Positions 1,760 to 21,966 of a stretch of 64,000 bases of DNA are shown here, piece after piece (the stretch's first letter is position 1; each line of letters opens with the position of its first letter). The notes below the pieces were generated by a model. The model was not told the origin of the DNA and searched no databases. It saw only the letters and a program-made list of their open reading frames with translations. This DNA is from Clostridia bacterium (GTDB lineage: Bacteria > Bacillota > Clostridia > UBA1212 > DUPL01). The stretch spans positions 448,001-512,000 of the forward strand of contig JBMNIW010000012.1 of NCBI GenBank assembly GCA_050951325.1. The letters run 5' to 3'. The position numbers and the translations under genes were made by a program.

Positions 1760-1774
1760 TTTCTCACTTCCTTA

Positions 1775-3610: not shown

Positions 3611-4967
3611 TTCTAAAAATCACCTCATTCTTATTCTGAAATTCTCTTACATCAATTTTACCTGTTACTGCTTCTGATATAAGGGATTGGCGGTATTCTT
3701 TGAGTTTTTCGATTTGGTTTTTTGTTTCTGTTACTAAACTATCTATTTCAGCAGTTTTTTGGTCAAGGAAATTTACAATAGCATTCTGTTCGTGTCTTTC
3801 TGGTAAATTGATTAATAACGATTTAATCTAAATTCTGGCTAATCTTAGATTGTCCACCTGTAAGCCATAGCAATAATATGGTTCCTGTCTTGCCAAAAAC
3901 CAATAAAATATACAATTTAATATTTACATTTTTAGTCTGTGCTAGTGCACAGCATGCCTATTCGTTGTCGCAATTATTCTTCTAATAGATACTTTCCTAT
4001 TGTCGCTCCATACATGGCAATTCAGTAAGTATCTATGTGCATTAACTTTAAGGTTGAATAATCTTTTAATGCTATATCTGTAATCATTTTTGACGTTTCA
4101 TAGAGATATCCATCATTTAAATTCTGCACCTGTATAACCAAGGTACATCTTCATCATACTATTCTATCTGATGTACTGGGAGTTGTTCCACTACCAATTA
4201 TATTAATAATCCAATATACTTTTTGTTACTTCCCAATGCTCCGGTATCTCCCCTATCCACTCAATTCCTGAATCCTTCATCCTAACATTCGGATTAAGTC
4301 CTTTAGTAACGGCTTCAGTTATAATAGCCTGCCGTTTTTCCTGTAGTAGTTCAATCAATTTTTCCTTATCAGCAATCAAACCATCTATTTCAGCAGTTTT
4401 TTGGTATAGGAAATTGGCAATGGCGTTTTGTTCGTCATACTTTGGTAAAGGGATATTAATTGATAATAAATTAGGAACCCTAATAGTTTTTATGGTTGTC
4501 TGGTCTGAATAGTTGTCTAATTCTTCATTAAACCTTGAACTTTCCATTAACCAAACAAGCCACTTTGAATATACTTTATTTTTATTAGGTGATAACCTTA
4601 ATAAATTTGCTGTTATATTAGCATTTTCAATGTTATTAGTAACTAACCCAATTTTTCCCATTGTACCTCTAACAGACATAACAATGTCATCTTTTTTTAG
4701 TTTTGTCATAGGATAGTTATTTGATATTTCCTCCGAAATAAACCTGGGCTCACAACTTTCAACATCTATCAGTCCGTTACCTTTTAGCATTTCTCCTCTT
4801 ACTTCAATTACACCATTATCTGAATACTGGATTCCATAATAAGTAGGATACCTATATACTAACTTAAAAATCCACTTGAGTTTTAGCACATCCCAATGCT
4901 CAGGTATCTCTCCTATCCACTCAACCCCTGAATCCTTATACCTTTCATACCTCTTAAACCTACTCAT
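3603..4967 (-). pseudogene. hsdS: Type I R-M specificity subunit; TRD1 intact (ORF 4203-4967), TRD2 broken by several frameshifts and stops
   Basis: Two KDSG(V/I)EWIGEIPEHW repeats; TRD2 motifs (IGSGTTP, LNDGYLYETSK, IAMYGATIGK) seen only in shifting frames; intact tail KLKEYRQSLISEAVTGKIDVR ends at 3603. Confidence 0.85.
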
Positions 4968-6991: not shown

Positions 6992-7192
6992 TCCTATGTA
7001 TTTCTCGATTTTGATACTTTAAGTCATTTATCAGTATATACACGCAAAATTATACCAATCTATACTTAAATATTCTATATTTTTTTAGATTTTCCTTTAC
7101 AATTTACAATCTTACAGAATATCGTAATATTTTATAAACTTTTTTATATTAAAAGCATCATACCTCCAGAGGATATATAAATAGTCTTCATT

Positions 7193-8866
7193 TCATGCAA
7201 TATTAAGACTCTTCAAAGACGATATCATATAGAATAGTTCATCTAAATACAATATCAATTTTAATGAGTTTATTTCATTATCATAGTTTAAAGCCTGCCC
7301 ATGAAATATCTTATGCCTACTAAAATCCTGTACTTCATCTGGCTCTTCAGGATTAAACCTTACATAAAATGAATCTATGCAATTAAAAGCATAGTTAACA
7401 ATAAAATTATCCAATTCTTTTGCTTTTTCTTTGAAATTATTATATAAATAACTAAATTTTTTCGCTGATATGTCATAAGTATCCCTTAAAAAATCTCGGA
7501 TAACTCCCTCAATCATAAATGTCCATATCGGAATGCACAAAGAGTATTTTCCTAATTTATGAGCATAAAAAGCATCGTCTATTTTGCTTCCCCACTTACA
7601 AAAATATTCCAGTCCATACCATTCTCTTATTATTTCTTCTAATTCTTTGTAATCATTGTCTTTATAAAAATCACATACTATTTTATCCACATCTTCTTGA
7701 AGTAAAGTTTCCCTGTTTCTATATATATAATTTATTTTTTCTATCGGTAAGGAACCGATAAACCACCAGCCAAACTGAAGCATAGTTTTGGCTTTCTTTT
7801 TTAAACTTTCATTTATATTCACATTTGAAACAAGTACAGTCTGTATGTTAAGTAAAAAAGGTTTTATATTATTAATAATACTTTGCTGTATATTTACAAA
7901 ATTCAATAATTTATCATTATATGTGAAGTTAAGTATATTATTTAGTTCTGTTCCGAGAGTCTGTATATGGCTCTGTAAGTTGTTATTTAAAGCCCTTCTC
8001 AGTAATTCTTGGCTCTCTAACGCTCTTCTAATGTATTCCATGTTATTGGGCTGTAGTATATCCCTTATGGCGTTTATTTCAGAATAGAAATTTTGAACCG
8101 TTGCAATCATGGCAGAAGACGATGCTATAGAAGACTGCATCTTTATCGCATTGCTTATATTATTGTATATTGGAGAATTAATTACTTTCGTATATGCTTC
8201 CATTGTACTTCCCAACTTACTTATGGTGGCAGCCAATTCTATTAATGCTGGATTATTTATAATATTTTGATACATTGCTGCATCAATAGAAGGATATCTT
8301 ACTGTTTCTGTTATCCTGCTTATTCTTGATGCTAATTCTATGCTTGGTAATAAATTTTTATAGTTGTCTAAAAAATCTAATTTAGACTTCATTTGTACTG
8401 CTATTTTTTTCATTTGTTCTCTATACTCTTCTGCTTCTTTTTTATGAATCAAATAGAACTTTATAAAAAAATCATCTGCTTCTTCAGTTACTTCTTCATC
8501 AAACCTTTTTAAATAATCTGAACTATCTATAATTTCTTCTCCAATCTTTTTTAAATCATTATCAGATAAACTTTCTATATCATCTAACTGAAGAGTAGGA
8601 AACTCATCTTCTTGGTATACTACATTACGACTATTCCTAATTATTCTTAAAACCATTTTGCAGAATGCTTTTCTATAATTTTTTGTTTCTTCAAAGGCCT
8701 TTTCATAAGTACTTGCGGCATCCATACTATAATAAATAGGTATTTCTAACTCTCTGTCCTGCCAATTTACAGGTACCAATTTTATCGCTCTTTTATAGGC
8801 TTCTGTTATATCTCCCAAACTTGTTATTTCCTTTATATCTTTAGGTTCTTTTTTCACAGATATCAT
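7193..8866 (-). CDS. Hypothetical protein with long helical middle and C-terminal HEPN-like domain
   Basis: 557-aa AT-rich ORF; C-terminal AFYAHKLGKY...MIEG...SRHKIFHG (Rx4H) pattern. Confidence 0.55.
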   Translation of the reverse strand: MISVKKEPKDIKEITSLGDITEAYKRAIKLVPVNWQDRELEIPIYYSMDAASTYEKAFEETKNYRKAFCKMVLRIIRNSRNVVYQEDEFPTLQLDDIESLSDNDLKKIGEEIIDSSDYLKRFDEEVTEEADDFFIKFYLIHKKEAEEYREQMKKIAVQMKSKLDFLDNYKNLLPSIELASRISRITETVRYPSIDAAMYQNIINNPALIELAATISKLGSTMEAYTKVINSPIYNNISNAIKMQSSIASSSAMIATVQNFYSEINAIRDILQPNNMEYIRRALESQELLRRALNNNLQSHIQTLGTELNNILNFTYNDKLLNFVNIQQSIINNIKPFLLNIQTVLVSNVNINESLKKKAKTMLQFGWWFIGSLPIEKINYIYRNRETLLQEDVDKIVCDFYKDNDYKELEEIIREWYGLEYFCKWGSKIDDAFYAHKLGKYSLCIPIWTFMIEGVIRDFLRDTYDISAKKFSYLYNNFKEKAKELDNFIVNYAFNCIDSFYVRFNPEEPDEVQDFSRHKIFHGQALNYDNEINSLKLILYLDELFYMISSLKSLNIA

Positions 8867-8956
8867 CCTCTATCCAAATACTGTTATTTCTATTTTAAGA
8901 CATTTATTTATTATCCTCAACAGAATTACAACATTTTTATCGACTATTATTAAAAT

Positions 8957-8985
8957 AAAAGCACATCTCGTAATGAGTGTGCTTT
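8957..8985 (-). terminator. Probable intrinsic terminator
   Basis: AAAAGCAC(A)...GTGCTTT hairpin downstream of the DUF2325 ORF. Confidence 0.55.
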
Positions 8986-9070
8986 GCTTACTGGTACATT
9001 TATTAGTTTTACATAAGAGAAGTGCTAACAACAATTCACTTATGAGAGTAAACTTATTACTTTTGGTTCC

Positions 9071-9730
9071 TTAACTTACAAGATGCTCACCTTTATACTG
9101 GCCGTTCTTTTGTCCAAACATTTTAAATCCTGCTGTAATTGAATTGTTATTGATAAAGACAATTTCTATTTTATTTTTGCGAACTGCATTTATAGTCTTA
9201 TAAAACATTGCATGCGAGTTATATGCAGTGTTAAAGTATATTTTGTCGGCATTTTCTAATATTTTTGTATCATAGTTTAACTGTTCTACTTCTATGAATT
9301 TAAAGTGAGGCACAATTTTACGCATATGCTGTTGCCATTGCGGAGTTCCGCCAATAATTACTCCTCTCGTTCCAGTTAATGCGTCATTAGTTATCTGCTC
9401 TTCATTAACGTATCGGCTTTCATCAATTAAATTTTCTATAGTCATTTTAAGTAATTGAATTTCTTCTTTATTTTCCTCTAACAATTGGTCTTTTTCTTTA
9501 ATAATCTCATTGTATTTTTTCCTAATATCGATGATTTCTCTTTCTTTTTCTCTTACTGTATCCAAACTTATAATTTTAAGTTTTTCTCTTAATTGGTTGT
9601 TTTCTCTTTCTAATTTTTCAACCTGCTCTTTAAGACAATATATTTGCGTTGCAAATTTTTCAAGTTCAATGTCCTTTTCTATGCTATTTTTACTTCTAAT
9701 TAATATGCTATCCGTTATTATTGTTATTGC
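9071..9730 (-). pseudogene. DUF2325-like protein with coiled-coil N-terminus, probably 5'-truncated
   Basis: C-terminal VIIGG...ENADKIYFNTAYNSHAMFY fits DUF2325; the frame stays open upstream of the called start (9565) to ~9730 without a clear start or RBS. Confidence 0.55.
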
Positions 9731-9895
9731 TTACTGTTCTTTTGTATAGTTTTTTATTAAGAGATATTCTAAATAGTGTTGAATCCTTCTTATTATCAAA
9801 TTACTAAAATCCTAAATAAAAAAGTGCAGGTTCTCTCCCCGCACCTTACCCCTTATTCCTTATCCCTTATATACCTAATTCCTTTTTATCCCCTG

Positions 9896-10050
9896 CTATT
9901 CATCTATTAAGTACCTTGTAATAAGTTCATCCAGTTTCTGGCTTAGTCTCAACGTCTCTTCATTGTTTATTCCTTTGCCCTCGAGGGTAACTTTTTTATT
10001 CAACTCATCTCTTAATTTCTCTATTTCCCGAAGCAAATGCTTCAATTTTG
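9896..10050 (-). pseudogene. Spo0E-family aspartyl-phosphate phosphatase, 3' part (5' part at 12835-12862), split by IS21
   Basis: Translation KLKHLLREIEKLRDELNKKVTLEGKGINNEETLRLSQKLDELITRYLIDE*; SQxLD signature. Confidence 0.75.
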
Positions 10051-10459
10051 TGTTTGGTAAGTATAAATCCGTGCAGCGCGGAAGTTAAAAACCCTGCAGT
10101 GCGGAAGTTAAAATCCATGCACCTCGCTATTTAAACTATTTATTTTTTCTAATGACTATATTCTCTTGAACATTATTAGCCACATAAGCAATTTGTACAG
10201 CATCTAAAGTGAAAGGGCACAGCTTTTACACACATGATCCAGAAATCGGTTTTAAACACCATCCTGGATGTCTATGGTGTCTTTTGCAGAAGCCAGGCTT
10301 TAACTTCCAAACAGTACAGCTTGAGCTCTTAGGAACATTATTAGTTTAATTGAGAACAATGAAATGCACAACAACATGCACATTTTGCTTGTTCTATTTC
10401 CGAATTGCATTTTACCACCTCCAGCCATTCTCTCTTATGTACAACTTATTTAATAAACT

Positions 10460-11188
10460 TTAAGCCCTCATTGTTGAATGAGCAAGTCTAAAGCTTGGTC
10501 CATTATGCAATATTAAATAACCATGATGTACCATTCTGTCCAGAATTGCATTAGTTAGCTTTTCATCATAAAAGATAGTGTTCCATTCGTTAAAAGGTAG
10601 GTTTGTAGTAATTACTACACTACGTTGCTCATAGCATTCCGAAATTACCTCAAACAGTAACTGAGTACCAGTCTTTTCAAACGGGATATAGCCCCACTCA
10701 TCCAATATGACAAGTTTTGCATTTAAAAGCTTCTTCCAGATGCTCTCTAGATTCTTTGAGGCCATTGCCTCAACTAAATCGTTAACCAATCTACTAGTCT
10801 TGTAATAAGCAACTCTATTTCCTTTCCTGCAGGCTTCAACACCTATAGCGGTTGCTAAGTGAGTCTTTCCGGTTCCAGGCTTTCCAAAAAGTATTAAGTT
10901 CTGTTTATTTTCGATAAATGTACATTCTTTTAAATCGTCTACTGATAGCTCTTCAGGCAGTTGTACATAATCAAAGGAATAGTTGGCAAAGCTTTTAATT
11001 ACATCAAAACCAGCCTGTTTTAAATATCGGTTTTTACGTTCTATGTCTCTTTCTTCAACAACAACCCTCAGTAAACTTATTAAGAAATCTTCGTTAGTCT
11101 CAGCTTCTATTGTTTTGTATGCTTCGGCCATGTATGTTCCTAGTCTTAATTGCTTACAGAGCTCAAGTATTATTCTTTGCTTGCTCAT
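10460..11188 (-). CDS. istB: IS21 helper ATPase IstB
   Basis: GKPGTGKTHLA Walker A, VILDEWGY, TTNLPF, AILDRMVH. Confidence 0.95.
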   Translation of the reverse strand: MSKQRIILELCKQLRLGTYMAEAYKTIEAETNEDFLISLLRVVVEERDIERKNRYLKQAGFDVIKSFANYSFDYVQLPEELSVDDLKECTFIENKQNLILFGKPGTGKTHLATAIGVEACRKGNRVAYYKTSRLVNDLVEAMASKNLESIWKKLLNAKLVILDEWGYIPFEKTGTQLLFEVISECYEQRSVVITTNLPFNEWNTIFYDEKLTNAILDRMVHHGYLILHNGPSFRLAHSTMRA

Positions 11189-12701
11189 TATCCACACCCC
11201 TTTCTCGAACTAAAGACATATACGCTTGTAAATCTACTTTATACTCTGCATGTTTGGGAAACTTTACGTTTGTCTCGATATTAGCTTCAGGAAGCACAGG
11301 ATCGATTATGTACCTATATGCAGCTTGTATGCTTTCTGAGCTGTTTGCGCCTAAAGTTATTGCCTTATTGAAGAACTCCATTGCTTTTTCATAGCCTTCT
11401 ATCTCAGCTCGTTCTGCAAAGAACTTTAATGCTTTCTGTGCATCTGGTAGATCTGCTTGCTTAAAAAATTCTCTTGTTTCTTCTGGCAACTCCTCATAAA
11501 ACATTGTATACTTTAACGCCTTCGGTCTTTTTGCTATCAAAGGGAGATAGGTCTCCCACTTAATGGATTCTTGGTTTTTGCCATATAACCTTGGATGTTC
11601 AACAATTAACTCAGAATTAGCATTTAATATTCTGACAGACATAGCAGATACCTGTAGTATTACCTCACTCTGCCCGTAGTAACTGCTCGTGGAGTACAAA
11701 TTGGTTTCAAATTTTGCACGTCCGTATTTGTCAGTTTTAGCAAAAACAAATTTGCAAGCATCAAAGTCAATAGCTGGCAGTTCGTTCATTGCTGCTAAAT
11801 CCTCTTTGAAAAGGTCACATACTTGTCTTTCGTACTTGTAGTGTTCTCTTATCATATCACTTGAACATTTCTCTAAAAGAATCTTATTGTACTCGGATAA
11901 ATCCTCTATACGTGGCACAGGTACAAACATATTTCTTCGGCTTGTTCCAACATAATTCTCGGCAGATCCTTTTTCATGACCAGAGTTTGGGTTGCAAAAA
12001 TTGCTTTTAAAGCCATAATGGCACATTAGTCTCTTGAAGCCATCAGTGACTTCTCTTTCTCCGTACGATTTAATTCTTTTTACTGCTGTACTCATGTTAT
12101 CAAAACGAATTATTGTAGGCACCTTGCCTAGATACTCAAAGACATTTTTGAGTCCCTGCATCAAGCACTCTAAATTTTCACCTTTAAACAGCTGGACAAA
12201 CTTGCCATCTGAATGAGGAAATGTTACTACTAAATGATGTCCTTCATAAAGTATTCCCTTTTCGTAAAATTCAGTTTTCCCAAAGTCGACTTGTGCCTCA
12301 CCTGCAGGATGCTCAAGGGGTAAATGAGTATTTTTTATTTCTTTTATTTCTTGCCTAATATCAGCAACGAGAGTACGTATAGCGCGTTCAGATACATTAA
12401 ACTCTTCACCTTCTTTTAAAGCTTCTTCCTTTAATCTGGTGTAAACCCGATGTGCTGTATGACGTTGCTTTGGAGGGGCAGATAGATCATCCGTAAGCCA
12501 TTGTTTCACTCTTTCTCGATATTTAGATGTCTTGCCGCTACGCTTAACCTTTACAGGAACCTTGGGACTAAAGTCCTCCATTTCTACGTATTTCTTTACA
12601 GTCTCAAAATCGTGTTTTGTCTCCCTTGCAATCTGCCTCAAACTCTTTCCTTCATTTTTATACATATTTCTGATATTATATATTTGCTCCATTGTTAACA
12701 T
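11163..12701 (-). CDS. istA: IS21 DDE transposase IstA
   Basis: N-terminal HTH (SLRQIARE), AQVDFG, FDNM, GHEKGSAE. Confidence 0.95.
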   Translation of the reverse strand: MLTMEQIYNIRNMYKNEGKSLRQIARETKHDFETVKKYVEMEDFSPKVPVKVKRSGKTSKYRERVKQWLTDDLSAPPKQRHTAHRVYTRLKEEALKEGEEFNVSERAIRTLVADIRQEIKEIKNTHLPLEHPAGEAQVDFGKTEFYEKGILYEGHHLVVTFPHSDGKFVQLFKGENLECLMQGLKNVFEYLGKVPTIIRFDNMSTAVKRIKSYGEREVTDGFKRLMCHYGFKSNFCNPNSGHEKGSAENYVGTSRRNMFVPVPRIEDLSEYNKILLEKCSSDMIREHYKYERQVCDLFKEDLAAMNELPAIDFDACKFVFAKTDKYGRAKFETNLYSTSSYYGQSEVILQVSAMSVRILNANSELIVEHPRLYGKNQESIKWETYLPLIAKRPKALKYTMFYEELPEETREFFKQADLPDAQKALKFFAERAEIEGYEKAMEFFNKAITLGANSSESIQAAYRYIIDPVLPEANIETNVKFPKHAEYKVDLQAYMSLVRERGVDNEQAKNNT

Positions 12702-13019
12702 CTCCTTTATCTCTTTTCAGTTTAGTCACTAAAAGGATATATTATCTCGAGGTGCGAAGCAATGGAGTTTTACTTTTCCAAACTGCTCGGATTCTTAACT
12801 TCCGGAGTGCTGGGATTCTAGTCTACCATAAACAGTAAACTTATTTTTTTATCATTCAACATAGAATCTCTCCAAATTTATTTGTTTATGTTATGGCAAA
12901 ATTATTAATAACCCTTAATTAATATTATCACACTGAGTCGTATTATATAAAGAATGCGACTTACGCATTCTATTATAGAGTTTTTGAAATTATCTCTAAT
13001 TAACATAGATTTCATTGTT

Positions 13020-13460
13020 TCAATTTAAGTTTTTGAAAAAACTATATCCTTTAATATAGTAACCATTTTTCTTATAAAACTCATGTGCTTCTTTACGGTC
13101 AATTCCGCTATTCAATGTAATTGCAGTTGCACCTTCATCTATTGCCCATTTTTCTGCTGATTCTAATAATTTTGTTCCAATCCCTTTACCTCTATATTGT
13201 TCGTTAACTACCAAAGCAATAATTCTTACATATTCTCCATCAAACTCATATGCATATAATTTACATAAACCAATAAAACCAACAACTTTTCTATCCACTT
13301 CTGCAACAAGTGTATTATAGCATTTACTTGAATTAATTCTCGATAATCTTTCTGATACATTCTTTATAGACGATGGATAGCCTAATTCTTTAATTAACTC
13401 TGTCAGTTTCCCAAAATCATCATCAATTATTTTTCTAATATGAACTTCTATTTGACTCAT
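13020..13460 (-). CDS. GNAT family N-acetyltransferase
   Basis: YRGKGIGTKLL acetyl-CoA motif and AHEFYKKNGY; GGAGG RBS before ATG at 13460. Confidence 0.9.
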   Translation of the reverse strand: MSQIEVHIRKIIDDDFGKLTELIKELGYPSSIKNVSERLSRINSSKCYNTLVAEVDRKVVGFIGLCKLYAYEFDGEYVRIIALVVNEQYRGKGIGTKLLESAEKWAIDEGATAITLNSGIDRKEAHEFYKKNGYYIKGYSFFKNLN

Positions 13461-13637
13461 TTTACTAACCTCCAGTAAAAACCTCTTGTTGCACTTTATT
13501 TTACTAATGCGTACCATATACCTTTATTTTACACCACTTCATCTATAAAAACATCTATATTTTATAACCCATATCCAAAAATCCCCAACGCCAATAGATA
13601 AACTTTAAATATCGATTATACTTAAATGTGAATGAAT

Positions 13638-14400
13638 AACTTTATTTCATTTTATTAGAACTATATCGGTTATAATTTTTTTTCAAAATTATTATGCTCC
13701 CATTTTGGAAACAGAAAATGCAACGTATGTTCTATAGGAAATGCAAAAAAATTCCTTACATGGACTCCCTGCAATTACCAATCATCTTATACCCTAAACC
13801 CATATGAAATCTCGTATTTCCAATGCTTCCCTTGTTCCTTTCACCTTTCAATATCACAACTTTATTTTATTATAAAAGAACTTTAACATCCTTAAAAATG
13901 TCTTTCCTTTTTTTAAAATTTCTTCTTCATCATTTCTGAAACAGAAAAATATACCAAGTTCTTATAAAAATAAAATAAAGTCCTAATTCCTTTTCCCTTT
14001 TATCCCCATTCCCCTTGTATTTTATATACTTTATCCCCATTCTTGTATCAAGAAATGTGGTTAAAACCTTAATCTAAGGACTTTATTTTCTTTTTGTAAC
14101 TACTTTTCTGTCATGAAAGAACTTTTCTGTTTCTAAAATTTTTACCCATATGAATTTTAGAAACAGAAAAAAATCGCTATGTTATATAGCAAAAGCAAAT
14201 AAAGTCCTATTACAAATTTCCTTTAATCCCCATTTATCTTGTGTCTTGGAACTCTATTAACTCCAGTATTTTCAACACTTTCCCTTATTCCTTATTCCTG
14301 TAAATAAAACTACTTTATTTCATTTTCTTTTCCATTCAATCTTCCAATCCATTGATTTATCTTAATTTCGGCCTTGCTCCTTATTCCTTATCCCTTAAAA
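13638..14400. repeat. Degenerate tandem array of three ~220-bp units, each containing a ~120-130 bp imperfect palindrome
   Basis: GAAACAGAAAA at 13708, 13938 and 14160; palindrome arms ACTTTATTT...AAATAAAGT; perfect 18-bp inner stem 14123-14140/14153-14170. Confidence 0.75.
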
Positions 14401-14498
14401 CTAATACATAAAAAACATGGCCTACAGGACATTCTTTTGCCCTAATAAACCATGTTTTCTGATACAACTTTATTTACTCCGTTTCATACATTTGAAAA

Positions 14499-15971
14499 AT
14501 GAAAGGAGTTTATTTGATTTATACAGTAGAGTATGCAGAAAGCAACGGGTGGCGATATGATATTTATGAAGAAAAGGTAATGTCAGGGGAAAATTTGGAA
14601 GGTAGACCTGTTATACAAGAATTATTGACTGAAATTGAGAAACATAAATATGACGCTGTCCTCGTAATTCATCCAGATAGACTCAGTCGCGGAGGTAGTA
14701 GGGATTTTGGATTGATTACAAGCGTTTTTAAATATGCCAATACATACCTTTTAACTCCACAAAGAAGTTATGATTTATCGGATTCCAGTGATGCTTTAGT
14801 ACTTGGAATTGAAGGTGTCATGTCAAACACAGAACTAAATCTAATCAAAAGCCGTTTCAAATGGGGAAAAATTCAGAGTGTAAAAAAAGGGCGACTTAGC
14901 AATGGAAACCCGCCCTATCCGTACGAAAAAATTCGAAAAATTATTGAGGATGAGAAAGGTAGAGTGAGAGTAGATTTTGACATCATAGTAAATCCGGAAA
15001 AAAACCAAGTATACCAAAGAATAAAACAGATGTATCTCAGGGGAATGGGAACTGAAAGAATTGCTTTTAAACTAAATCGTGAAAATATACCTAGCCCTGG
15101 TGGAAAAACATGGAGTTCTAACACCATCCAAAGACTTCTAGTGCATGAATTCCATATGGGAAAAATAGTATATGGTAAGTATGAATGGAAGAAAAAACCT
15201 CTTTCTGGAGATAGAGAGGTAATAAAAAGAGATGAAGATGAATGGATAATCGGATATGGAAATCATGAAAAACTAAAAACCGAAGAAGAGCACACAGCAA
15301 TCTTGGAAATAATGGGTAGAAATAGAAAAATCCCTCACCGTGCGAGACATGGAGTATATCCAACAAGCGGTTTATTAACATGCAAACTTTGTGGAAGAAC
15401 AATGACTTATAGTCGTGGCAGGAAGGAAGTAAAAACAGGAAAAACGTATGATTATACAAAGTGTTATTATCACAGACCAACTGGAGAAAAATGTCCACAG
15501 CGAGGAGTAAAGATGACAGAAGAGTTTTATGAAAAATTGTATAATACTATAGTTAATAGTTATCTAGACAAAGAAAGAATCAAACAAATTAGTCAAAACC
15601 AAGAAGAGAAGAAAAATATAGAGAAACAAATAAAGACGAAACAAGCCGAATTAGAAAAACATGAAAATGCCCTTAAACTTGCAAGAGAAAAATTAGAAGA
15701 AGGCGTATATAGCGATGAAGACTTTTTGGATGCAAAAAAAAGAAGGCAACCTCAAATTACAAAACTGCGTAAAGAAATTATTCAATTTAAGAACAAACGC
15801 TTCACTGCTTACTCTGATGAAGAATTAGAAAAACTTATAGAGAATTTTAAATGTAACTGGCATAACGCAGTCACAGATAAAGAAAAAAATCAATTACTTA
15901 AGACAATAGTTAAGAAAATTTACTACAATCGTGAAGGTAATACTGTGACTTTTGAAATTGAGTATCTGTAA
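14499..15971 (+). CDS. Large serine recombinase, N-terminal catalytic motif missing
   Basis: SG...RP and DRLSR of the resolvase domain, recombinase domain, zinc ribbon (LLTCKLCG...C...C), coiled coil, KNQLLKTIVKKIYY tail; no YxRxS at the start. Confidence 0.88.
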   Translation: MKGVYLIYTVEYAESNGWRYDIYEEKVMSGENLEGRPVIQELLTEIEKHKYDAVLVIHPDRLSRGGSRDFGLITSVFKYANTYLLTPQRSYDLSDSSDALVLGIEGVMSNTELNLIKSRFKWGKIQSVKKGRLSNGNPPYPYEKIRKIIEDEKGRVRVDFDIIVNPEKNQVYQRIKQMYLRGMGTERIAFKLNRENIPSPGGKTWSSNTIQRLLVHEFHMGKIVYGKYEWKKKPLSGDREVIKRDEDEWIIGYGNHEKLKTEEEHTAILEIMGRNRKIPHRARHGVYPTSGLLTCKLCGRTMTYSRGRKEVKTGKTYDYTKCYYHRPTGEKCPQRGVKMTEEFYEKLYNTIVNSYLDKERIKQISQNQEEKKNIEKQIKTKQAELEKHENALKLAREKLEEGVYSDEDFLDAKKRRQPQITKLRKEIIQFKNKRFTAYSDEELEKLIENFKCNWHNAVTDKEKNQLLKTIVKKIYYNREGNTVTFEIEYL

Positions 15972-16022
15972 AAACGTCTATACCCCTTAAAAATGGCCGT
16001 TTTAAATACTCATTAATTGCTG

Positions 16023-16211
16023 TTATTTGCAGACTTGACACCAGTGACAGGTGCTATAACCAATTGACAGAAATACTGGTTTGTTTTCCAGTTTTGCCTT
16101 TTCAAAGGCTTTATCGCACCAGGGATACCAGTCGATGGGATTATATGCATGCTGCAGTAAGTAGGGAGATTTCTCGTGGATAAGTCTATTGGCTTGCTTG
16201 TTAGTTGACAT
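16023..16211 (-). pseudogene. 5' fragment of yyaL/DUF255 thioredoxin-domain gene (copy 1), truncated after CHWC
   Basis: [24 protein letters not shown]...[13 protein letters not shown] followed by a stop; GGAGG RBS. Confidence 0.88.
16027..16053. other. Putative LSR attachment junction (att-like), copy 1
   Basis: TTGCAGACTTGACACCAGTGACAGGTG matches 20193-20219 at 25/27; identity extends past the point where yyaL coding is lost. Confidence 0.6.
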
Positions 16212-16716
16212 CGGAACCACCTCCTATTGTTTATGATAATTGCACTATACGCTGTTTATGACATTATTTGGTATGAGCTGGATTCGTATATATTATACAA
16301 TACGCTATAAATTTTGGCATAATGTCTTATGCAAGAGGAACTGCTGTGTTGTTGAGTTAGCATGCTTCTTATTGATTCTGTTGAATTAAACACTTGAATC
16401 CTCTCCTTCATTATTATACAGTAAAACTCCCTTGTTTATACCCTGCTGCACTATTTCGAATACACTTTCTTCTTTACAAGCACATATGTTCAATATATTT
16501 CGCACCACGTCTTCTTTTTTTTCCTCGGCTTCTCGCAAGAAACTTTGCAATAACTTGGGCGTCGAGTGCCTTGTTGATGGTGCCACGATTACCTTTATCT
16601 ATTCAAATTTTATGTAAGAGGACTTTTGTTGACATCTTAATCATAGACTGAACTATAGTTAAGCTTGTAGTGGGGAGAGGTTCCGGTCCGTTAGTGAACA
16701 AAGTTCTAATTTTACT

Positions 16717-16758
16717 CCAAATTGATTAATTGTAATAAATAGCAATTAATCAATTTGG
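16717..16758. repeat. Perfect 16-bp inverted repeat
   Basis: CCAAATTGATTAATTG-N10-CAATTAATCAATTTGG. Confidence 0.8.
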
Positions 16759-16957
16759 TATTGTTACAAGGACGAGGACGACTCACCTCTTGGTGGGGTT
16801 TTCTTCTACCATCTTTTGTGTTAATCTATAAACGTTCCTCTTTAACCTTGATGTTTCTCCAGAGTTCGCCTTGTTCCTTTAAATATTGCAGTTCATTAAA
16901 AATTGGAGTTATTTCATGAAATAACTTTCTGAACAAGGAATTCCAAACCACAACTCG

Positions 16958-17164
16958 GAGCGGGGCCGGGTATGCCATAATCAACATCATCAACTTGTAC
17001 CTGGTGGGCAAAATGGAAAGCAGCGTGTTTTTCCCGGCATACAACGGACTGGTCATACTCGCCACAACAGTCGCAGGATCAATGTTTTTTAAGGAGAAAC
17101 TAACAACCCGCCAGTACGTAAGCATAGTTGTTGGCATACTTGGGGTTGTTCTGGTAAACATATG
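16958..17164 (+). pseudogene. C-terminal fragment of an EamA/DMT transporter
   Basis: SGAGYAIINIINLYLVGKMESSVFFPAYNGLVILATTVAGSMFFKEKLTTRQYVSIVVGILGVVLVNI*; no start. Confidence 0.7.
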
Positions 17165-17201
17165 AAAAAGGGCCGTTGACATTAGCAACAGCCCAGCAAC
17201 T

Positions 17202-18029
17202 TTATTTCTTCATGCTTTCCATGTACTTATCGTAGCATTGCTGCCATTTCTCAAACTCCTGTTTAAAGTAATCATTCATGAAAACATAATTGGATTCACC
17301 TGTTTCATTATCTTCCGTGTAGCACAATCCAACGCCATTATCAAACTTGAAGGTAACAGTACGTTTGTCGGTAACATATTGGATGTACGGGTTTGCGCTG
17401 GAAGGCGAGTAAACATCAGGATATCCAATCAAACCAAACAACTCATCCTGGGACAACCCGGCCAGCTTGCTCAATTCCTCGTCGGAGCTGAGTATGGTAT
17501 ACCTTAATTCGTCTTTTTCCTGGATGAGCTTCCTTACATCTTCAATATTTAAAGCATTACGGATTTCCATAATGTAAAACCCTTCACTATCCGTGCCCAG
17601 ACGAGCCAGTTTGCCAAGCTTGCCGTCATTGAAGACAAGCAAACTTGCGCCCTTGGAATATATCCACACATTGTCAAGTTCGTATTCCGGATCACCAAGA
17701 AGCTTGTGCACATCTTCCTTTGACAAGCCATCATGCAAAACCGGTTCACTCTTGAAATCAACACAAGTATCCAAATCCATGCTTGACAGCACATGATTTA
17801 GGACTGTCAAATCACATTCTTCGCCGGCATGGAGTTCAACATCCAACTCTTCTAACAGCGTGTTCAGTTGTTCCACAGAAACAGTATCATCGTACTTCCC
17901 GGCAGTGTCTTCCATTTCCATATCTTGACCGGACTGCCCGGCCGAAAACGGAAGGTTACTGTAAGATACTGCCAAGACCAATACAACAACGAATGATACA
18001 GCAACCAACAGAAGATACCCTTTTTTCAT
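17202..18029 (-). CDS. Secreted or membrane-anchored hypothetical protein with two SmpA/BamE-like motifs
   Basis: Signal-like N-terminus; GLSKEDVHKLLGDP and GLSQDELFGLIGYP. Confidence 0.6.
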   Translation of the reverse strand: MKKGYLLLVAVSFVVVLVLAVSYSNLPFSAGQSGQDMEMEDTAGKYDDTVSVEQLNTLLEELDVELHAGEECDLTVLNHVLSSMDLDTCVDFKSEPVLHDGLSKEDVHKLLGDPEYELDNVWIYSKGASLLVFNDGKLGKLARLGTDSEGFYIMEIRNALNIEDVRKLIQEKDELRYTILSSDEELSKLAGLSQDELFGLIGYPDVYSPSSANPYIQYVTDKRTVTFKFDNGVGLCYTEDNETGESNYVFMNDYFKQEFEKWQQCYDKYMESMKK

Positions 18030-18047
18030 ATATCATTCTCCTTTCTA

Positions 18048-18521
18048 TTAAGATTTTACTATTGATAATGTATAGTCTCCATTATTGCCACTACTGACAC
18101 CTAGTATTTTGAGTTTATATAACTTTCCAGGACTTAAAGCTACTTGCATGTAAACGCCACTACTAGACTGCATAAAAGTCTTTCCTTCATATAACACACC
18201 ATATAAACCATTATTACCATATGTCCGTATAACATAGACGCCAGCTTCATTTACCATAAACTCGTACCAATCAATGTCCCCTTGCCAACAATACCTATCT
18301 GAATCCGGTTCACTTGCACCAGTATTAGGTAGAACTATGTTCCAATATTCAATACTACCCGAGACAATAGCAGGTGAGGAAGATGAAATCAACGACAAAG
18401 AATTGCTCATTGACGCAATGTCACCAGCATTATCCCATTTATACATATCATTTGATGATCTTTTTCCATCATGAATTACTGCATCAATTCGTATCTTATA
18501 GTAAGACAAACTGATTAACAT
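18048..18521 (-). pseudogene. Probable C-terminal fragment of an extracellular protein (PPC-like beta domain)
   Basis: GDIDWYEF...GVYVIRTYG...LSPGKLYKLKI...GDYTLSI; no signal peptide or RBS. Confidence 0.45.
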
Positions 18522-18657
18522 GTTTTTTCATATTAAACTTCACCTCACTTACCATAATAGCTAATTCCATTAAATTGTAAACATATGTTATTTGAACTTT
18601 TTGTTAATATTTTTAAATGTATACAACCTATCTATTGCCCGGCATGTACATAAAACA

Positions 18658-18690
18658 GAACCGGCAGGTGATTTCCCACCTGCCTGCTTC
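18658..18690 (-). terminator. Hairpin downstream of the glycoside hydrolase fragment
   Basis: GGCAGGTG-N6-CACCTGCC. Confidence 0.5.
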
Positions 18691-18719
18691 ATTCCATCGT
18701 ACATTCCGCGACTCTCCCA

Positions 18720-19745
18720 TTAACTCCTGTAAACATAATTCAGCCTGCCATAAGGTGCTGTATCGCCATTAAGATAAAAATCCTCTATTGTCCAGTCACC
18801 GGCTATTCCATCCGCCCATTTGAATTGGAACTCAAAAGGAGTTTTTTCAAGCCCAATAAGCTTTCTTGGCACCATAAGCATCATCTCACTGCCTTCGTGC
18901 TTCATAGGGGCCCTGCCTATTGGCACGAACCTCCACGCTCCAAGGCTTTTGTAAACTATGGAGTTGTCCCCATCCACCAGCTCAAGATTCGCCGCATACT
19001 GGTACCTTTCCCATCCTATGAAGTCATTCCCTTCTACATGCAGGAACAACCTCCTCCATGGTGTGAAAGAATACCTCTGCATCCTGTCGAAAGTGCTTAC
19101 ATAGAAATACACATTCTCGTCATCGTAACAGATCTTCATTCTGTCAATGTCGTTCCTGCCGGTGTCATTCACGTACCTGTCTCCCCCTACGCCGAAATGA
19201 TCCCTGTGGCAGTTCCCAAAAGGAAGGTCATGGAACGTTGGCTCCACATCCTCCCACTGGGCAAACTGGCCATGAATATCGATGGTCTTCCTCATTCCGG
19301 GTTTTACTTCGTCCATACCTTTAAACCTGCGGACGTAATCGACAAGCTGCATGTAATAATCGTCAAAATGTCCATCGCGCATGGGCTCGATATCCCTGCT
19401 GAACTCCTGGTTTGCCTGGTCTATGAACGTGACAGGTCTCTCCTTTGAGCCACGGACCCTTCCCATGGTCCATTCATTCCATCCGGTCACGAAGATGATC
19501 CTTGGGTCCTGCTCCATCGCGTACTCCCACTGCTCCGCAATGTTGAATCCCCAGTTCAGGGCACCCTTGGTCCTGTCGTTGTATCCATCATGGAAAGCCC
19601 TTCCACGGTTCCTGACTTCTCCATACATCGCCGAATCCCCAAACTTTATCTGTGGATGCTGAGCAACGGAAACACTGATGATTTCGGGATTGCCGTCCTT
19701 GTCCCTGAATACATGCTGCGGACGCTCAAATGCAATCCAGTGGCA
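18720..19745 (-). pseudogene. 5'-truncated GH99/GH71-like glycoside hydrolase
   Basis: VTGWNEW and SRDIEPMRDGHFDDYY resemble ORF 27171-28430; frame open upstream of Met 19628 to ~19745, then lost; visibly higher GC than flanks. Confidence 0.65.
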
Positions 19746-19810
19746 CGCAACAGGTTAATGTTGATGACACCGTAGTCCTGTAGGCCGCCCTGCAGCAACA
19801 TAGGGATCAG

Positions 19811-20137
19811 ATGGGAAAGGAGTATAAAGCCCTAGACAATCTATTGATAATGCGTGAGGATGGGGAGATCGATAAAGAGACATTTTTAAGGCGAAAAGAA
19901 ATTAGGGAGACAAACATAAAAGTGATAAAAGAAAAAATAAATGAACTCGAGGAGAGAATTAAGAGAAGCCAGGCCATGGATGATAAAAGGCGACTGGCTA
20001 ATATTGAAAACTTTTTTACAAAATGGGAACAGACAGATAGCATTGAATTGAAAAATCAGTTTTTGAGAATGATTATCGACAACATTATCTATAAAAGAGA
20101 GTGAGATGAGATTGAGAACGTTGTAAATTTTTGTTAG
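19811..20137 (+). pseudogene. C-terminal remnant of a second large serine recombinase
   Basis: EDGEIDKETF...KNQFLRMIIDNIIYKRE*DEIENVVNFC parallels EEGVYSDEDF...KNQLLKTIVKKIYYNREGNTVTFEIEYL of 14499-15971. Confidence 0.75.
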
Positions 20138-20167
20138 GCGTATAGCGCAGGGACGGAACGCTTGATA

Positions 20168-20377
20168 TTACAACATTGTCGTTTGGTGTATATTGCAGAC
20201 ATGGCACCAGTGACAGGTGGAATAGCCGATGGAAAGAAAGACAGGCTTGTCCTCTGCCTTCGCCTTTACAATGGCTTCTTCACCCCAGGGAAACCAGTCC
20301 ACAGGATTGTATGCATGTTGCAACAAGTAGGGGGATTTCTCGTGAATCAGTCTATTGGCTTGTTTGCTGGTTGACAT
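20168..20377 (-). pseudogene. 5' fragment of yyaL/DUF255 gene (copy 2), truncated after CHWCHV
   Basis: [31 protein letters not shown]...[12 protein letters not shown] followed by unrelated residues. Confidence 0.88.
20193..20219. other. Putative LSR attachment junction (att-like), copy 2
   Basis: TTGCAGACATGGCACCAGTGACAGGTG, near-identical to 16027-16053. Confidence 0.6.
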
Positions 20378-20530
20378 CGGTATCACGTCCTTGATTTCTA
20401 GCGTTCTCATCACTATACGCATAACTTTGACACTTATTATTAGCGAGTCTCATATAACAAGTTGCTATTTGTATTATAACCTTTTTATGGTCTCTTTTAT
20501 TCTCGTCTTTCAGAGCTGTCCCTGCATACA

Positions 20531-21487
20531 CTATGCATAAATCAATTCATCATAAGGTATTCTTCTAACTAGTTCGAAATTAACAAGATATGTATCTAAC
20601 CTTTCTCCATGATATAGGTCAATACCATTTTCATTCAGTACTACTTTATATGATTCCCAATTATCTGGGTATAAGTCTTGAATATTCCATACCGGCTCCA
20701 TTGTCTCGCAATTAACAATTTCAGAGAAATAGAGTTCACCATGTTCCCATGTGTTCGTGGCTAATGCAAGGTATGTCACTCCATTGATACTTATAATCCT
20801 ATATGATAAACTGTCTTCCAAATAAGATATATCATATCTTTTACTTATAACTTCACCTGTAGTGCTGCCTGCTCAATGCCTTAGTGCAGGCGACTACCGC
20901 CCAGAATGCCTCATGGGAGCTCGCGGAAGTCTCCGGTCGGGAGCTGGTGCCCAGAATATATTGTCATCCATCCAATAAGCTATATAGTCTGTTCTATCAG
21001 GGAAAATAGTATGGTATATGTTATTTAAGATTTCTTCATTTTTAGTCAAATCCCTTATATATACATTTCTAACTGTCGGACTAGGTGTTTGTTGTTCTGT
21101 TTGGAATGGAGTCTTTTTCGGGGTGAGTATTGGTGTTGCAGTATAATTAGTTTGGAAATTTGGCGTTGTTTGAGAAGCAGGGGTAGGACTCACGCCAATG
21201 AATCGTTCATAAAGACTTGTTATCGTGTCCGGAAAAAGTATAACAAGCAATAAAACAAATAGTATTGCTGCTGTTGCTATGCTTGCAATCAAACTGTGCC
21301 TTTTTGGATATATATCAGCGCCAATCATAGAAGTAGTATTCATACTGTTAAGTTTTTCTATCTGAATGTTGTCTTCATTATTAAGAAGTTTAGTTATAGA
21401 CACAAATAACTTCTCGTTATCATTACTATCGTACTTTACTTTAGACATGAGTTCCAAATATTTATTTATACTATTATCATCCATCAC
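20531..21487 (-). pseudogene. Putative anti-sigma membrane protein split in two by a GC-rich insert
   Basis: ORFs 20894-21487 (single TM, Thr/Pro linker) and 20531-20821 are in the same frame; coupled to the ECF sigma gene. Confidence 0.55.
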
Positions 21488-21966
21488 TATTCCTCCTCAA
21501 TTCTTTTTTTAAGTTCAATCCTTGCTCTTCTCAGCCATGTACTTATTGTATTTATCTTTTTATCCAACAACTCTGCAATTTCGGGTACTGTATATTCTTC
21601 GTAATAGTAAAGATATAAGACGTTTTTGTATTTATCAGGCAGCTTCATTATTAATTCAAATATGTACCTATCCTCAGGTAATACAAAGAATTGGGTTGCT
21701 TCCCTTTCTTGAATTGATACAGTCCGTTTTCGCCAAGAAGATTTAGTGTGGTTTTTACACATATTTAGGGTTACTTTTATTAGCCATGCTTTTACATAGT
21801 TTTCGTTGTCAAACGCTTTCTTGCAAGTCATTAATTTTATAAATACCTCTTGGGTTATATCTTCTGCCACATAAAAGTCATTTGTGTTTTGTACTGCAAT
21901 TCGTAATATCATTGAACTATATTTCATTATCATATCACTTAGAGAACTTTCATCATATGTACCCAC
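21487..21966 (-). CDS. ECF RNA polymerase sigma-70 factor
   Basis: AEDITQEVFIKL, KAWLIKVTLN, LPDKYKNVLYLYYYEEYTVPEIAELL. Confidence 0.93.
   Translation of the reverse strand: MGTYDESSLSDMIMKYSSMILRIAVQNTNDFYVAEDITQEVFIKLMTCKKAFDNENYVKAWLIKVTLNMCKNHTKSSWRKRTVSIQEREATQFFVLPEDRYIFELIMKLPDKYKNVLYLYYYEEYTVPEIAELLDKKINTISTWLRRARIELKKRIEEE

Follow-up and report, generated by a model that had tools for sequence, protein, structure and literature searches.

The yyaL gene of the Clostridia bacterium analyzed here (DUF255, PF03190; a thioredoxin-like CxxC domain and a six-hairpin domain) lies on the minus strand and is broken at its CHWC-coding sequence. The elements found at the break belong to a family of large serine recombinases (LSRs) whose members bring along a 5' copy of the gene that ends in a stop codon. 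We consider it somewhat more likely than not that LSR recombination brought these elements in and that the stop-closed copy keeps YyaL as a two-piece protein, so that the cost of insertion is lowered. The LSR family thus appears to have converted its target into a two-piece gene, which, if true, is the answer of LSR elements to a problem that tyrosine-integrase elements solve trivially.

The window, i.e. the whole analyzed stretch of 64,000 nucleotides, contains two 5' fragments of yyaL that share a breakpoint, each lying tail-to-tail with the 3' end of an LSR gene. A first-pass annotation had read this from the letters, and a profile search bears it out: PF03190 matches at 16023-16220(-) with E 3.6e-27 and at 20168-20422(-) with E 1.1e-27 (95.8 and 97.5 bits against a curated cut-off of 27, CxxC included), and both fragments end in (Q/H)V before they depart from yyaL. 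The shared junction that had been claimed is real, although its count is 24/26 under the annotation's own pattern instead of 25/27. In a whole-genome scan PF03190 matched at three places, namely both window fragments and a third 5' copy 10 kb left of the window. There, as had been predicted, the copy precedes the 3' part of yyaL, which is open for 636 codons, ends at C12:436076, matches PDB 7TKV at 6e-88 and is the single instance in the genome.

The outermost fragment (copy1; 20219-20377, minus strand, from ATG to GYS according to PF03190 and sequence reading) lies downstream of an ECF sigma operon. It is followed by attL_X, a dead LSR_X tail, 3.6 kb of host-like DNA, the middle copy (copy_X; 16053-16211, minus strand, with RBS, ATG and 53 codons to GYS according to PF03190 and junction reading), attL_Y, the 26-kb island Y and finally the island's own 53-codon copy (copy_Y; C12:438002-438160, minus strand, left of the window). 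Copy_X continues without insert through TCH and the core into the P' arm of island Y. Copy_Y ends in GYS-TAG; a 21-nt outer attP arm, in which TAG occurs in frame once more, leads on to the core and the 3' part of yyaL. The three copies do not represent a local duplication, because their DNA identity is 67-79%. Nor is the layout an assembly artefact, since a public DNA contig from an independent run (14525-18689) and an RNA-library contig (20042-20297) bridge the junction regions.

Both recombinase genes are on the plus strand. The open reading frame 14499-15971(+), with Resolvase, Recombinase (PF07508, 2.4e-19) and Zn-ribbon (PF13408, 2e-6) domains, the last two C-terminal to the first, had been taken for a nearly full-length LSR; the tail-to-tail arrangement stands, but the gene (LSR_Y, 14526-15971) is 5'-truncated to residues 37-517 of an intact 517-aa protein, to which it is 99.8% identical across that range. 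It covers positions 25-144 of the 145 of the Resolvase profile and misses the catalytic-Ser segment; the intact form contains the YLRKS segment. The place expected for the first 36 codons is occupied by an AT-rich array with units of about 225 nt (13600-14525, repeat analysis), and the identity to the intact LSR begins at 14526 (at 14525 in the comparison with locus L100). LSR_Y is therefore a dead copy of a true LSR. The second recombinase, LSR_X, is a tail remnant of 92 codons with an in-frame stop (19856-20131, by alignment to the 517-aa protein). Its alignment spans residues 427-512 at 33% identity (E 9e-5), and other LSR tails are closer to it, at 48-50%. The other LSRs of the genome reach at most 25% identity. 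In their present state neither island can move. A skin-like excision linked to sporulation had been held conceivable; the analysis lends it no support, as LSR_Y has lost its catalytic N-terminus, a 92-codon tail is all that is left of LSR_X and the genome's other LSRs are distant. In four sequencing runs no excision joint was seen, which by itself is weak evidence.

The attachment sites have kept their structure. On the minus strand, attL of Y (16017-16068) consists of a P' arm (16017-16041), a core (16042-16043) and a B-type arm (16044-16068), and attL of X (20183-20234) of a P' arm (20183-20207), a core (20208-20209) and a B arm (20210-20234); the two P' arms are alike at 19/25 positions. 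At the far end of island Y, left of the window, copy_Y, its stop and the 21-nt outer P arm lead to the core at C12:437970-437971. The P and P' arms of this island form an inverted repeat at 22/25 positions, where 20,000 chance draws gave a mean of 6.9 and a maximum of 16. PMC3783163 describes LSR attP sites as 25-bp half-sites around a central dinucleotide, and an imperfect inverted repeat of this type is found in the Y arms and in the homotypic attP of loci L116 and L117. As expected of an LSR element, attL and attR are hybrids and share no long direct repeat. From the reading of the arms, the exchange is confined to the 8 nt CAC-TG-GTG at the Trp codon of CHWC. An inverted-repeat attP of about 52 bp would thus have recombined with the attB of the gene when the LSR brought island Y in, with the strands, judging from what is known of the LSR family, probably exchanged within CAC-TG-GTG. 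The outer half-site of such an attP would have to differ from that of attB (the LSIGYS codons), and an element would therefore be barred from rejoining the gene seamlessly.

The same recombinase is found in other surroundings. In L100 the LSR of Y recurs with 100% amino-acid identity, the same P' arm adjoins the 5' fragments of other hosts in L100 and L105, and a complete relative of 10.4 kb, L101, has ends built in the same way. Islands of type Y are, by this comparison of sequences, evidently mobile, given that one LSR and P' arm stand beside fragments of different hosts. Moreover, yyaL pieces lie within 10 kb in 42/80 related LSR loci, in line with the earlier proposal of a dedicated LSR family, and the clade evidently targets the CxxC-coding sequence of yyaL.

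A census of 60 junctions yielded 26 of attR-type (element-borne 5' copy to 3' gene), 11 of attP-type, 21 of attL-type and 2 seamless ones, the latter out of 28 LSR-adjacent full genes. In 26/26 attR-type junctions, this genome included, a stop (TAG, TGA or TAA) directly follows GYS, and 14-54 nt of outer attP arm separate it from the 3' gene; the insert starts in a stop in 9/11 attP-type junctions as well. The gene is thus not rebuilt as one reading frame, and the suggestion that the elements restore their target and recreate an attB does not hold for the usual product, which is neither an intact gene nor a standard attB. Seamless rejoining is exceptional (copy_X here, L038 and L080). The other part of that suggestion, that a 5' gene copy and its RBS travel with the element, proved correct: an intact homotypic attP lies beside the copy in the viral contigs L116 and L117, so the element carries it before integration.

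The element-borne copies have their own start codon and a strong RBS, and the 24/24 that are listed start with ATG and are 53-60 codons long. Their median dN/dS is 0.086 over 69 pairs versus 0.08 for native fragments, at saturated dS (median 1.7) and in a set of 25 sequences that represents few independent lineages; this pattern indicates purifying selection on the element-borne copy. The 5' frame is intact in 24/26 copies that adjoin a 3' gene versus 22/32 that do not (Fisher p 0.048, ignoring relatedness, with one of the 'decayed' calls, L048, being a regex miss). Copy_Y is closest to other element-borne copies and copy_X resembles native-type fragments. Among the 22 attR loci open to judgement, 20 have a full-length 3' frame. 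Two loci have an explicit two-ORF layout, L126 with an SD-like GAGGA and an in-frame ATG in the insert, and L065 with a stop/start overlap (TCATGA). Promoter-like matches upstream of the 5' copies were not above chance for this AT-rich DNA.

On the favoured two-piece reading, the element would supply an RBS, the initial ~53 codons and a stop that lies immediately beyond attP. To make the remainder, ribosomes would probably re-initiate on the conserved Met of CHWCHVM, which in this genome is 39 nt past the stop. The host would then retain a two-piece YyaL, which should make the insertion less costly. A complex model of the 53-aa piece and the 628-aa Met-started piece is consistent with this. 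Its score was 0.84 (best of 3 controls 0.00) and passes a mark that 116/157 solved complexes and 2/215 mismatches reach, with a contact agreement between runs of at least 98% and a partner pLDDT of at least 87, but the pass may reflect known structures, because full-length homologues have been solved (7TKV, 3IRA). A canonical start codon before CxxC is absent from the 3' frame in 20/25 attR junctions, this genome included. TCHWCHV, presumably the active site, would be missing from a Met-started 3' piece, and a YyaL devoid of CxxC may be useless. The seamless junctions beside an LSR (L038, L080 and copy_X) show that another outcome exists, and the interrupted form may be selected against.

The alternative that each element's 5' copy rebuilds an intact yyaL and a true attB, into which the next element integrates, is unlikely but has some observations on its side. 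Since copy_X runs insert-free into the core and P'_Y, a seamless junction between copy_X and the 3' part existed when Y arrived, and it is this junction that Y would have had to enter. An intact LSR immediately precedes a seamless yyaL in G041, where a displaced attL-type fragment is found 13.3 kb upstream, and G040 shows a similar arrangement. The LSR_X tail is closest, at 40-50% identity, to the clade of L058 and L034, which have the shortest inserts (15-16 nt), and of the seamless L038 and L080. Nevertheless, the stop and outer P arm in every attR-type junction and the mere two seamless cases among the LSR-adjacent full genes argue against it as a rule. An attP with a B-type arm would, moreover, be attL-like, and such a site is not recombined with attB by LSRs, according to PMC3783163. 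Here, copy_X is like native-type fragments and not like element-borne ones, and host-like DNA separates it from LSR_X.

This interior of island X (16212-19810) has a GC content of 0.39-0.45 and gave no matches with Pfam and PADLOC. Positions 18720-19730 hold a truncated copy from a family represented about 55 times in the genome; the nearest copy (82% protein identity) is on C8, where a neighbouring stretch matches too. Two small genes of the interior appear in RNA-library contigs. That host-like DNA fills the 3.6 kb from the LSR_X tail to copy_X also raises the possibility, which we regard as distinctly unlikely, that the outer pair of copy1 and LSR_X tail did not arise by stacking in one gene. 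Either two neighbouring yyaL paralogues were each hit once, after which a deletion took the 3' part of the first and most of X, or a fossil attL junction came with foreign DNA. The GC3 of copy1 (0.57, versus 0.37-0.39 for the 3' gene and 0.43 for copy_X) and the GC of the block 19001-20500 (0.45) would fit, but GC3 across 46 codons is noisy and there is one 3' yyaL only in the genome. In addition, recurrent attL-type stacks with unrelated 5' pieces argue for a general process: such fragments are 64-70% identical in L037 and 82% in L066, some of them ~0.4 kb apart. Stacks in yyaL (L032/L026, L037, L033, L066, L067 and G040) are in fact common in Bacillota, as the first-pass annotation had anticipated in proposing serial integration, and in L036 and L109 an element has integrated into the attR of another.

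It is quite improbable that the 5' copy has no role in expression and is a relic of target capture or homology for RecA-mediated gain and loss. Homologous exchange between copies does occur, as the stacked near-identical fragments of L032 (91-94%) show, but copies at one locus are mostly 64-72% identical, too diverged for efficient homologous recombination, and intact frames, ATG starts, strong RBSs and a dN/dS of 0.09 (dS saturated) speak against it as well.

Least probable is a recoding cassette in which ribosomes bypass the stop and the attP-derived gap, with take-off on the Ser codon that precedes the stop and landing just before Thr-Cys, so that full-length YyaL would be kept despite the insertion at CxxC. 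The layout resembles that of T4 gene 60, as described in PMC5462505, in its short sense segment (53-60 codons in the family), the immediate stop (26/26) and a non-coding gap of tens of nucleotides (14-54 nt), and one subfamily, with gaps of 44-54 nt, has the stop in a strong tetraloop hairpin (z -2.3 to -5.5 in 7/9 such junctions folded) with TAG-to-TGA changes compensated on the other strand in 3/11 pairs; a same-box Ser codon immediately precedes Thr-Cys in 8/25 junctions. Unlike T4 gene 60, however, the present genome has no matched codons (landing CCG, take-off TCG) and no hairpin (insert z 0.3), close relatives differ in having TCG or CCG as landing codon (L046 and L069 versus L061 and L083), and CCG occupies the same position in L102 even though this locus is devoid of a 5' copy, so that it belongs to the P arm. 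The likeness is a lead only; if bypass were true, the hairpin subfamily would be the second natural bypass system borne by a mobile element after T4 gene 60.

Replacing a displaced gene end is familiar from other integrating elements. Tyrosine-integrase phages and islands duplicate the end of their target, as in tRNA genes and in icd for e14 and phage 21. They too bring a replacement for the displaced part and leave the displaced fragment at their other end, but they use another recombinase family and replace the 3' end seamlessly via a long identical core, whereas the yyaL elements replace the 5' end and the join cannot be seamless. Similar in organization are SCC and SCCmec, which with SCC composite islands occupy rlmH (orfX) of staphylococci and are moved by the Ccr large serine recombinases. 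Features shared with the yyaL elements (compare PMC11470126 and PMC13739063) are site-specific, LSR-driven entry into one conserved housekeeping gene that remains usable, tandem cassettes stacked at one site and anti-phage defence cargo. SCC elements differ in targeting the 3' end of rlmH, where a few codons are replaced seamlessly, in lacking a gene copy of 160 nt with its own RBS, an obligatory stop and an attP-derived gap, and in hosts and, as it appears, recombinase clade; with yyaL as target instead of rlmH, the locus is not an SCC-type composite island. Spore formers of the Bacillota also have gene-intervening LSR elements, i.e. skin in sigK, SPbeta in spsM and gin in gerE, with the recombinase at one end by the att site (PMC4191935, PMC5595907 and PMC5025042). 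According to these sources they bring no replacement gene end, and the gene is restored by developmentally timed excision; the yyaL family supplies a 5' exon instead. Both LSR genes here are defective and have no close paralogue in the genome, so there is no support for placing the locus among the excised elements of the skin/SPbeta type.

In the open-access literature we found no publication that links serine recombinases with yyaL or DUF255. Under the favoured reading, yyaL would be to defence-carrying islands of Bacillota what rlmH is to SCC, namely a widespread hotspot of integration and stacking. Its loci yield natural attP/attB/attL/attR sets by the dozen for a single LSR clade, a resource for studying LSR site recognition and for the design of recombinase tools.

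Island Y, about 26.1 kb in total (C12:437972-464041, of which 1-16041 in the window), has a GC content of 0.28-0.35 versus 0.398 for the genome. The defence genes that had been ascribed to it are indeed there (2-6991, minus strand, Pfam and PADLOC): an HsdR gene that extends past the left window end (Pfam), a GmrSD/HEC-06-like gene (1775-3610; PADLOC HEC-06, 1.1e-31), HsdS (4203-4967; Specificity_I, 2.7e-77) and HsdM (4964-6991; MTase_I, 3.6e-301), the Hsd genes making up a type I R-M system. The Spo0E-like cargo is equally real, as a gene of 49 aa on the minus strand (9896-10045; PF09388, E 3.5e-13), and an IS21-type insertion with IstA- and IstB-like genes occupies 10460-12701 on the same strand (PF01695, 2.2e-63; PF22483).

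Members of the yyaL family are found in exactly three places of the genome. Two of these are 5' fragments of a yyaL/DUF255 gene within the window, both on the minus strand (16023-16220, PF03190 E 3.6e-27; 20168-20422, PF03190 E 1.1e-27), which read to ...(Q/H)V and thereafter depart from yyaL. The third lies 10 kb to the left of the window on the same contig (C12, JBMNIW010000012.1, positions 437636-438142) and has two internal TAG codons. In gene orientation it opens with a 53-codon 5' copy ending GYS, followed by a TAG. The next 18 nt include another in-frame TAG and lead into PTCHWCHVMAEESF..., and the 3' yyaL part stays open for 636 codons up to the gene end. The first-pass annotation had predicted precisely such a 3' part, continuing VM...SF and with a third 5' copy ahead of it. 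The outermost fragment is referred to here as copy1, the middle one as copy_X and the copy adjoining the 3' gene as copy_Y. The native 5' copy could not be identified by synteny, as the nearest genomes belong only to the same order, have a yyaL that is ~50% identical and share nothing in the flanks. The idea of a promoter shared by copy1 and copy_X was dropped because their homology stops ~14 nt upstream of the ATG, and promoter and terminator scans upstream of all three 5' copies gave no excess over shuffles.

Island Y, which interrupts the CxxC-coding sequence, measures ~26.1 kb (C12:437972-464041). Its arms, read in gene orientation, are the 25 nt that lead up to the far-end core and the 25 nt that follow the other core (window 16041-16017), and they form an inverted repeat at 22 of 25 positions (20,000 null draws: mean 6.9, maximum 16). 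The attP of large serine recombinases (LSRs) is described (PMC3783163) as 25-bp half-sites flanking a central dinucleotide, and judged by sequence the repeat has the look of such a site. Comparison of the arms limits strand exchange to 8 nt, CAC-TG-GTG, and on grounds of symmetry the crossover would be the TG of the Trp codon. The break after CHWC(H/Q)V that had been noticed before is indeed the same in both window fragments, but it marks the end of the resemblance between attP and attB and not the crossover. The registers of the zinc-ribbon motif, compared by eye between P and B arms, showed no clear shift for Y.

The recombinase gene of Y (window 14499-15971, plus strand; Resolvase, Recombinase and Zn-ribbon domains) matches a public 517-aa protein with 100% identity across 98% of LSR_Y. 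According to tblastn, the coding part left in the window spans just residues 37-517 (99.8% identity); the catalytic-serine segment (YLRKS) is missing and an AT-rich array of ~225-nt units stands in its place. The remnant in the outer, decayed island X (LSR_X; window 19856-20131, plus strand) contains an internal stop and aligns, at 33% identity (E 9e-5), with residues 427-512 of this 517-aa protein. It is closest to the LSR tails of two other loci, L058 and L034 (48-50% identical across 105 residues), with L038 and L080 next (40%), and other LSR-like genes in this genome are just 25% identical. The LSRs of X and Y are thus distinct members of one clade, and both genes are dead. The array (window 13600-14525) consists of about four units with internal inverted repeats, occupies the place of the first 36 codons of LSR_Y and has no second copy elsewhere in this genome. 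Summed contig depth over it was 210-298 in two DNA runs, as compared to ~30 nearby in one of these, and thus related sequence is plentiful in digesters. A DNA contig of run X8 (4760 letters) fits window 14525-18689 over 4165 letters, and its remaining 595 do not fit the window; it may represent a strain that differs left of 14525 and perhaps carries an intact LSR 5' end.

A scan of genome contigs with LSR_Y alone yielded no relative, and an alignment of 26 LSR homologues yielded 196 candidate stretches, 178 of which were confirmed. In 42 of the 80 genome loci fetched from these, yyaL pieces lie within 10 kb, in line with the proposed family of LSRs aimed at the CxxC-coding sequence. The host range includes Paenibacillus, Desulfosporosinus, Sporomusa and relatives, Clostridia MAGs and others. 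Island Y belongs to a large family of mobile elements. Two metagenome contigs (L100, L105) have the LSR of Y, with 100% amino-acid identity in L100, and its P' arm, which in them stands beside very different 5' fragments of other hosts. A complete relative of 10.4 kb (L101) likewise has at its far end a 5' copy, a stop, a 22-nt insert and the 3' gene. The copy is not universal in the clade, since a locus with an LSR 80% identical to LSR_Y (L102:11552-11600) continues directly, in opposite polarity, into a P arm and 3' yyaL without any 5' copy. The element does bring the 5' copy with it into integration, as the first-pass annotation had supposed: two viral contigs (L116, L117) have a 5' copy, a stop and an intact homotypic attP contiguously downstream of the LSR. 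A tblastn search with the 53-aa copy returned one unannotated 4.5-kb record from phages and only full-length yyaL genes from plasmids, and no free attP.

The junctions were collected by a pattern that required the GYS codons and, after a spacing of 0-70 nt, the CHW core, and that left stops unspecified; duplicate DNA was removed. The resulting 60 junctions comprise 26 of attR type (a 5' copy joined via an insert to the 3' gene), 11 of attP type (via an insert to an element arm), 21 of attL type (displaced fragments that adjoin an element arm without insert) and 2 seamless ones (a whole gene beside an LSR). All 26 attR-type inserts open with a stop (TAG 15, TGA 9, TAA 2), as do nine of the 11 attP-type inserts, and the inserts are 14-54 nt long. 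Integration therefore usually yields neither a rebuilt gene nor a regenerated attB; the earlier view that the gene is restored and the site recreated would fit the two seamless junctions and the step that involved copy_X.

Stacks in yyaL are frequent. Five 5' copies are present on a Paenibacillus typhae contig (overlapping loci L032 and L026), four in L037 and several each in L033, L066, L067 and G040. At two junctions (L036:11613, L109:1521) the 5' copy and outer P arm of one element are joined at the core to the P' arm of another, which indicates integration of an LSR element into the attR of another element. The stacked fragments of L032 are 91-94% identical and represent local duplicates; those in this genome (67-72%) and in L037 (64-70%) are unrelated.

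The gene that Y entered in this genome must have been seamless, made up of copy_X and the 3' part. That single step fits the serial integration into a restored gene that had been suggested. The seamless junction may be the product of an element that restores the gene; the LSR_X clade holds two seamless cases, and in one of them (G041) a displaced fragment lies 13.3 kb upstream. However, copy_X resembles the native type, host-like DNA separates it from the LSR_X tail, and the GC3 of copy1 is odd (0.57 versus 0.37-0.39 for the 3' gene). The same arrangement may also stem from captured host DNA, from repair that used a displaced fragment as template, or from two former yyaL paralogues. Between copy_X and LSR_X, window 18720-19730 is a truncated gene of a family with ~55 copies in this genome, the nearest of which is on another contig (C8:167610-169271, 82% aa), and a neighbouring stretch (window 16989-17161) also matches that contig (C8:166242-166414).

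Median dN/dS among the element-borne copies is 0.086 (46 conserved codons, 69 informative pairs; the median dS of 1.7 is saturated), and the value for native and displaced fragments is 0.08. ATG is the start codon of all 24 copies listed, which have 53-60 codons, and strong SD sequences stand upstream of those read. Copy_Y is closest to other element-borne copies (77-78% identity) and not to the fragments of its own genome, and the Gly codon GGG is common to most short-insert copies whereas it is rare among native fragments; the copies have thus been inherited with the elements. Among copies that adjoin the 3' gene, 24 of 26 have an intact 5' frame, versus 22 of 32 among those that no longer do (Fisher p 0.048, relatedness ignored), and one of the two 'decayed' calls in the former group (L048) is a pattern miss. 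Moreover, of 22 attR loci in which the 3' frame could be assessed, 20 have it at full length. Taken together, selection, frames and starts point to a function of the copy that depends on the downstream 3' gene.

The most likely way in which the interrupted gene works is as a YyaL made in two pieces. The outer attB arm codes for LSIGYS and the outer attP arm has to differ from it, so the element would set a full coding copy outside the P arm and close it by a stop. The downstream part would be translated separately, with a restart at the invariant Met of CHWCHVM, here 39 nt past the first stop. Of 25 junctions, 20 (among them that of this genome) lack a canonical start in the stretch from the last stop to the first Cys codon, and the ORF that starts at this Met has 628 codons in this genome. 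Such a piece would lack the CxxC, which is the chief weakness of the two-piece model. Only a few lineages have an explicit second start by which the CxxC is retained: in L126 (~7662-7700) the stop overlaps an SD-like GAGGA, followed after 5 nt by an in-frame ATG within the insert, L065 (~11634-11660) has an overlapping stop and start (TCATGA), and L053 and L059 have an in-frame ATG ahead of the CxxC. A model of the complex of the 53-aa and 628-aa pieces scored 0.84 (best of three controls 0.00), a mark attained by 116 of 157 solved complexes and by 2 of 215 mismatches; contact agreement between runs was at least 98% and partner pLDDT at least 87. This result may reflect mere likeness to homologues solved at full length (7TKV, 3IRA).

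It is quite improbable that a single product is made instead by ribosomes that bypass the stop and gap. The junctions do resemble T4 gene 60 (PMC5462505) in that a stop directly follows the last sense codon of a sense part of ~55 codons and precedes a gap of tens of nt. Moreover, one subfamily has the stop within a tetraloop hairpin (L046:28-72, L048:225-269, L061:9099-9143, L069:9054-9098, L083:4046-4090, L053:9414-9458, L059:5938-5982, L056:2536-2580 and the junction at L036:11613), with fold z of -2.3 to -5.5 in seven of the nine junctions folded and with a TAG/TGA change compensated on the opposite strand in 3 of 11 pairs. However, the insert of this genome has no structure (z 0.3), its candidate landing codon is CCG versus TCG, and the landing position differs between close relatives. 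As L102, a locus without a 5' copy, also has CCG there, the position is part of the P arm. In the hairpin subfamily the Tyr-Ser-stop codons are in the hairpin, outside the 25-bp attP arm, and a TAT-to-TAC change is likewise compensated. Readthrough of the insert was ruled out as a general solution, since insert lengths fall in all three phases (modulo 3, in 25 junctions: 0 in 13, 1 in 7 and 2 in 5) and several in-frame inserts have two stops.

Searches of the open-access literature, including broader ones, found no paper that pairs a serine recombinase with yyaL or a large serine recombinase with DUF255; a mention of yyaL that came up had no bearing on the subject. Tyrosine-integrase elements, with their duplication of target ends, are one of the closest known systems. 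Others are the SCC composite islands at rlmH, some with defence cassettes in tandem (PMC11470126), and the gene-intervening LSR elements of spore formers.

Fourteen DNA runs contain the layout, each with at least 0.80 of the sampled words. A DNA contig spans 14525-18689, an RNA-library contig spans the attL_X junction (20042-20297), and RNA-library contigs cover window 16857-18583. The loose contig ends listed at 20199-20239 mismatch the 3' yyaL of this genome and resemble yyaL of other organisms. No joint that removes X or Y was seen in the Logan contigs of two DNA and two RNA runs, where contig gaps cannot prove absence. As both recombinases are dead, the conceivable skin-like excision during development finds no support in this genome.

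The cargo of Y, with a GC content of 0.28-0.35 versus 0.398 for the genome, includes a type I R-M system in which a GmrSD/HEC-06-like gene is embedded; the interior of X gave no match to a defence gene. Further genes of Y encode a 658-aa protein with a weak match to a primase zinc finger (C12:438790-440766, L111:8790-10766) and a small serine resolvase of 207 aa (C12:441076-441699, L111:11076-11699), both near the 5'-copy end, an ADP-ribosylglycohydrolase, a GNAT protein and the Spo0E-like protein recognized earlier. An IS21-type element with IstA- and IstB-like genes is inserted in Y (window 10460-12701). On both sides of the interrupted yyaL there are genes for ECF sigma factors (window 21487-21966 and C12:435091-435591, L111:5091-5591) that are 38% identical to each other, and a beta-propeller protein is encoded after the left one.
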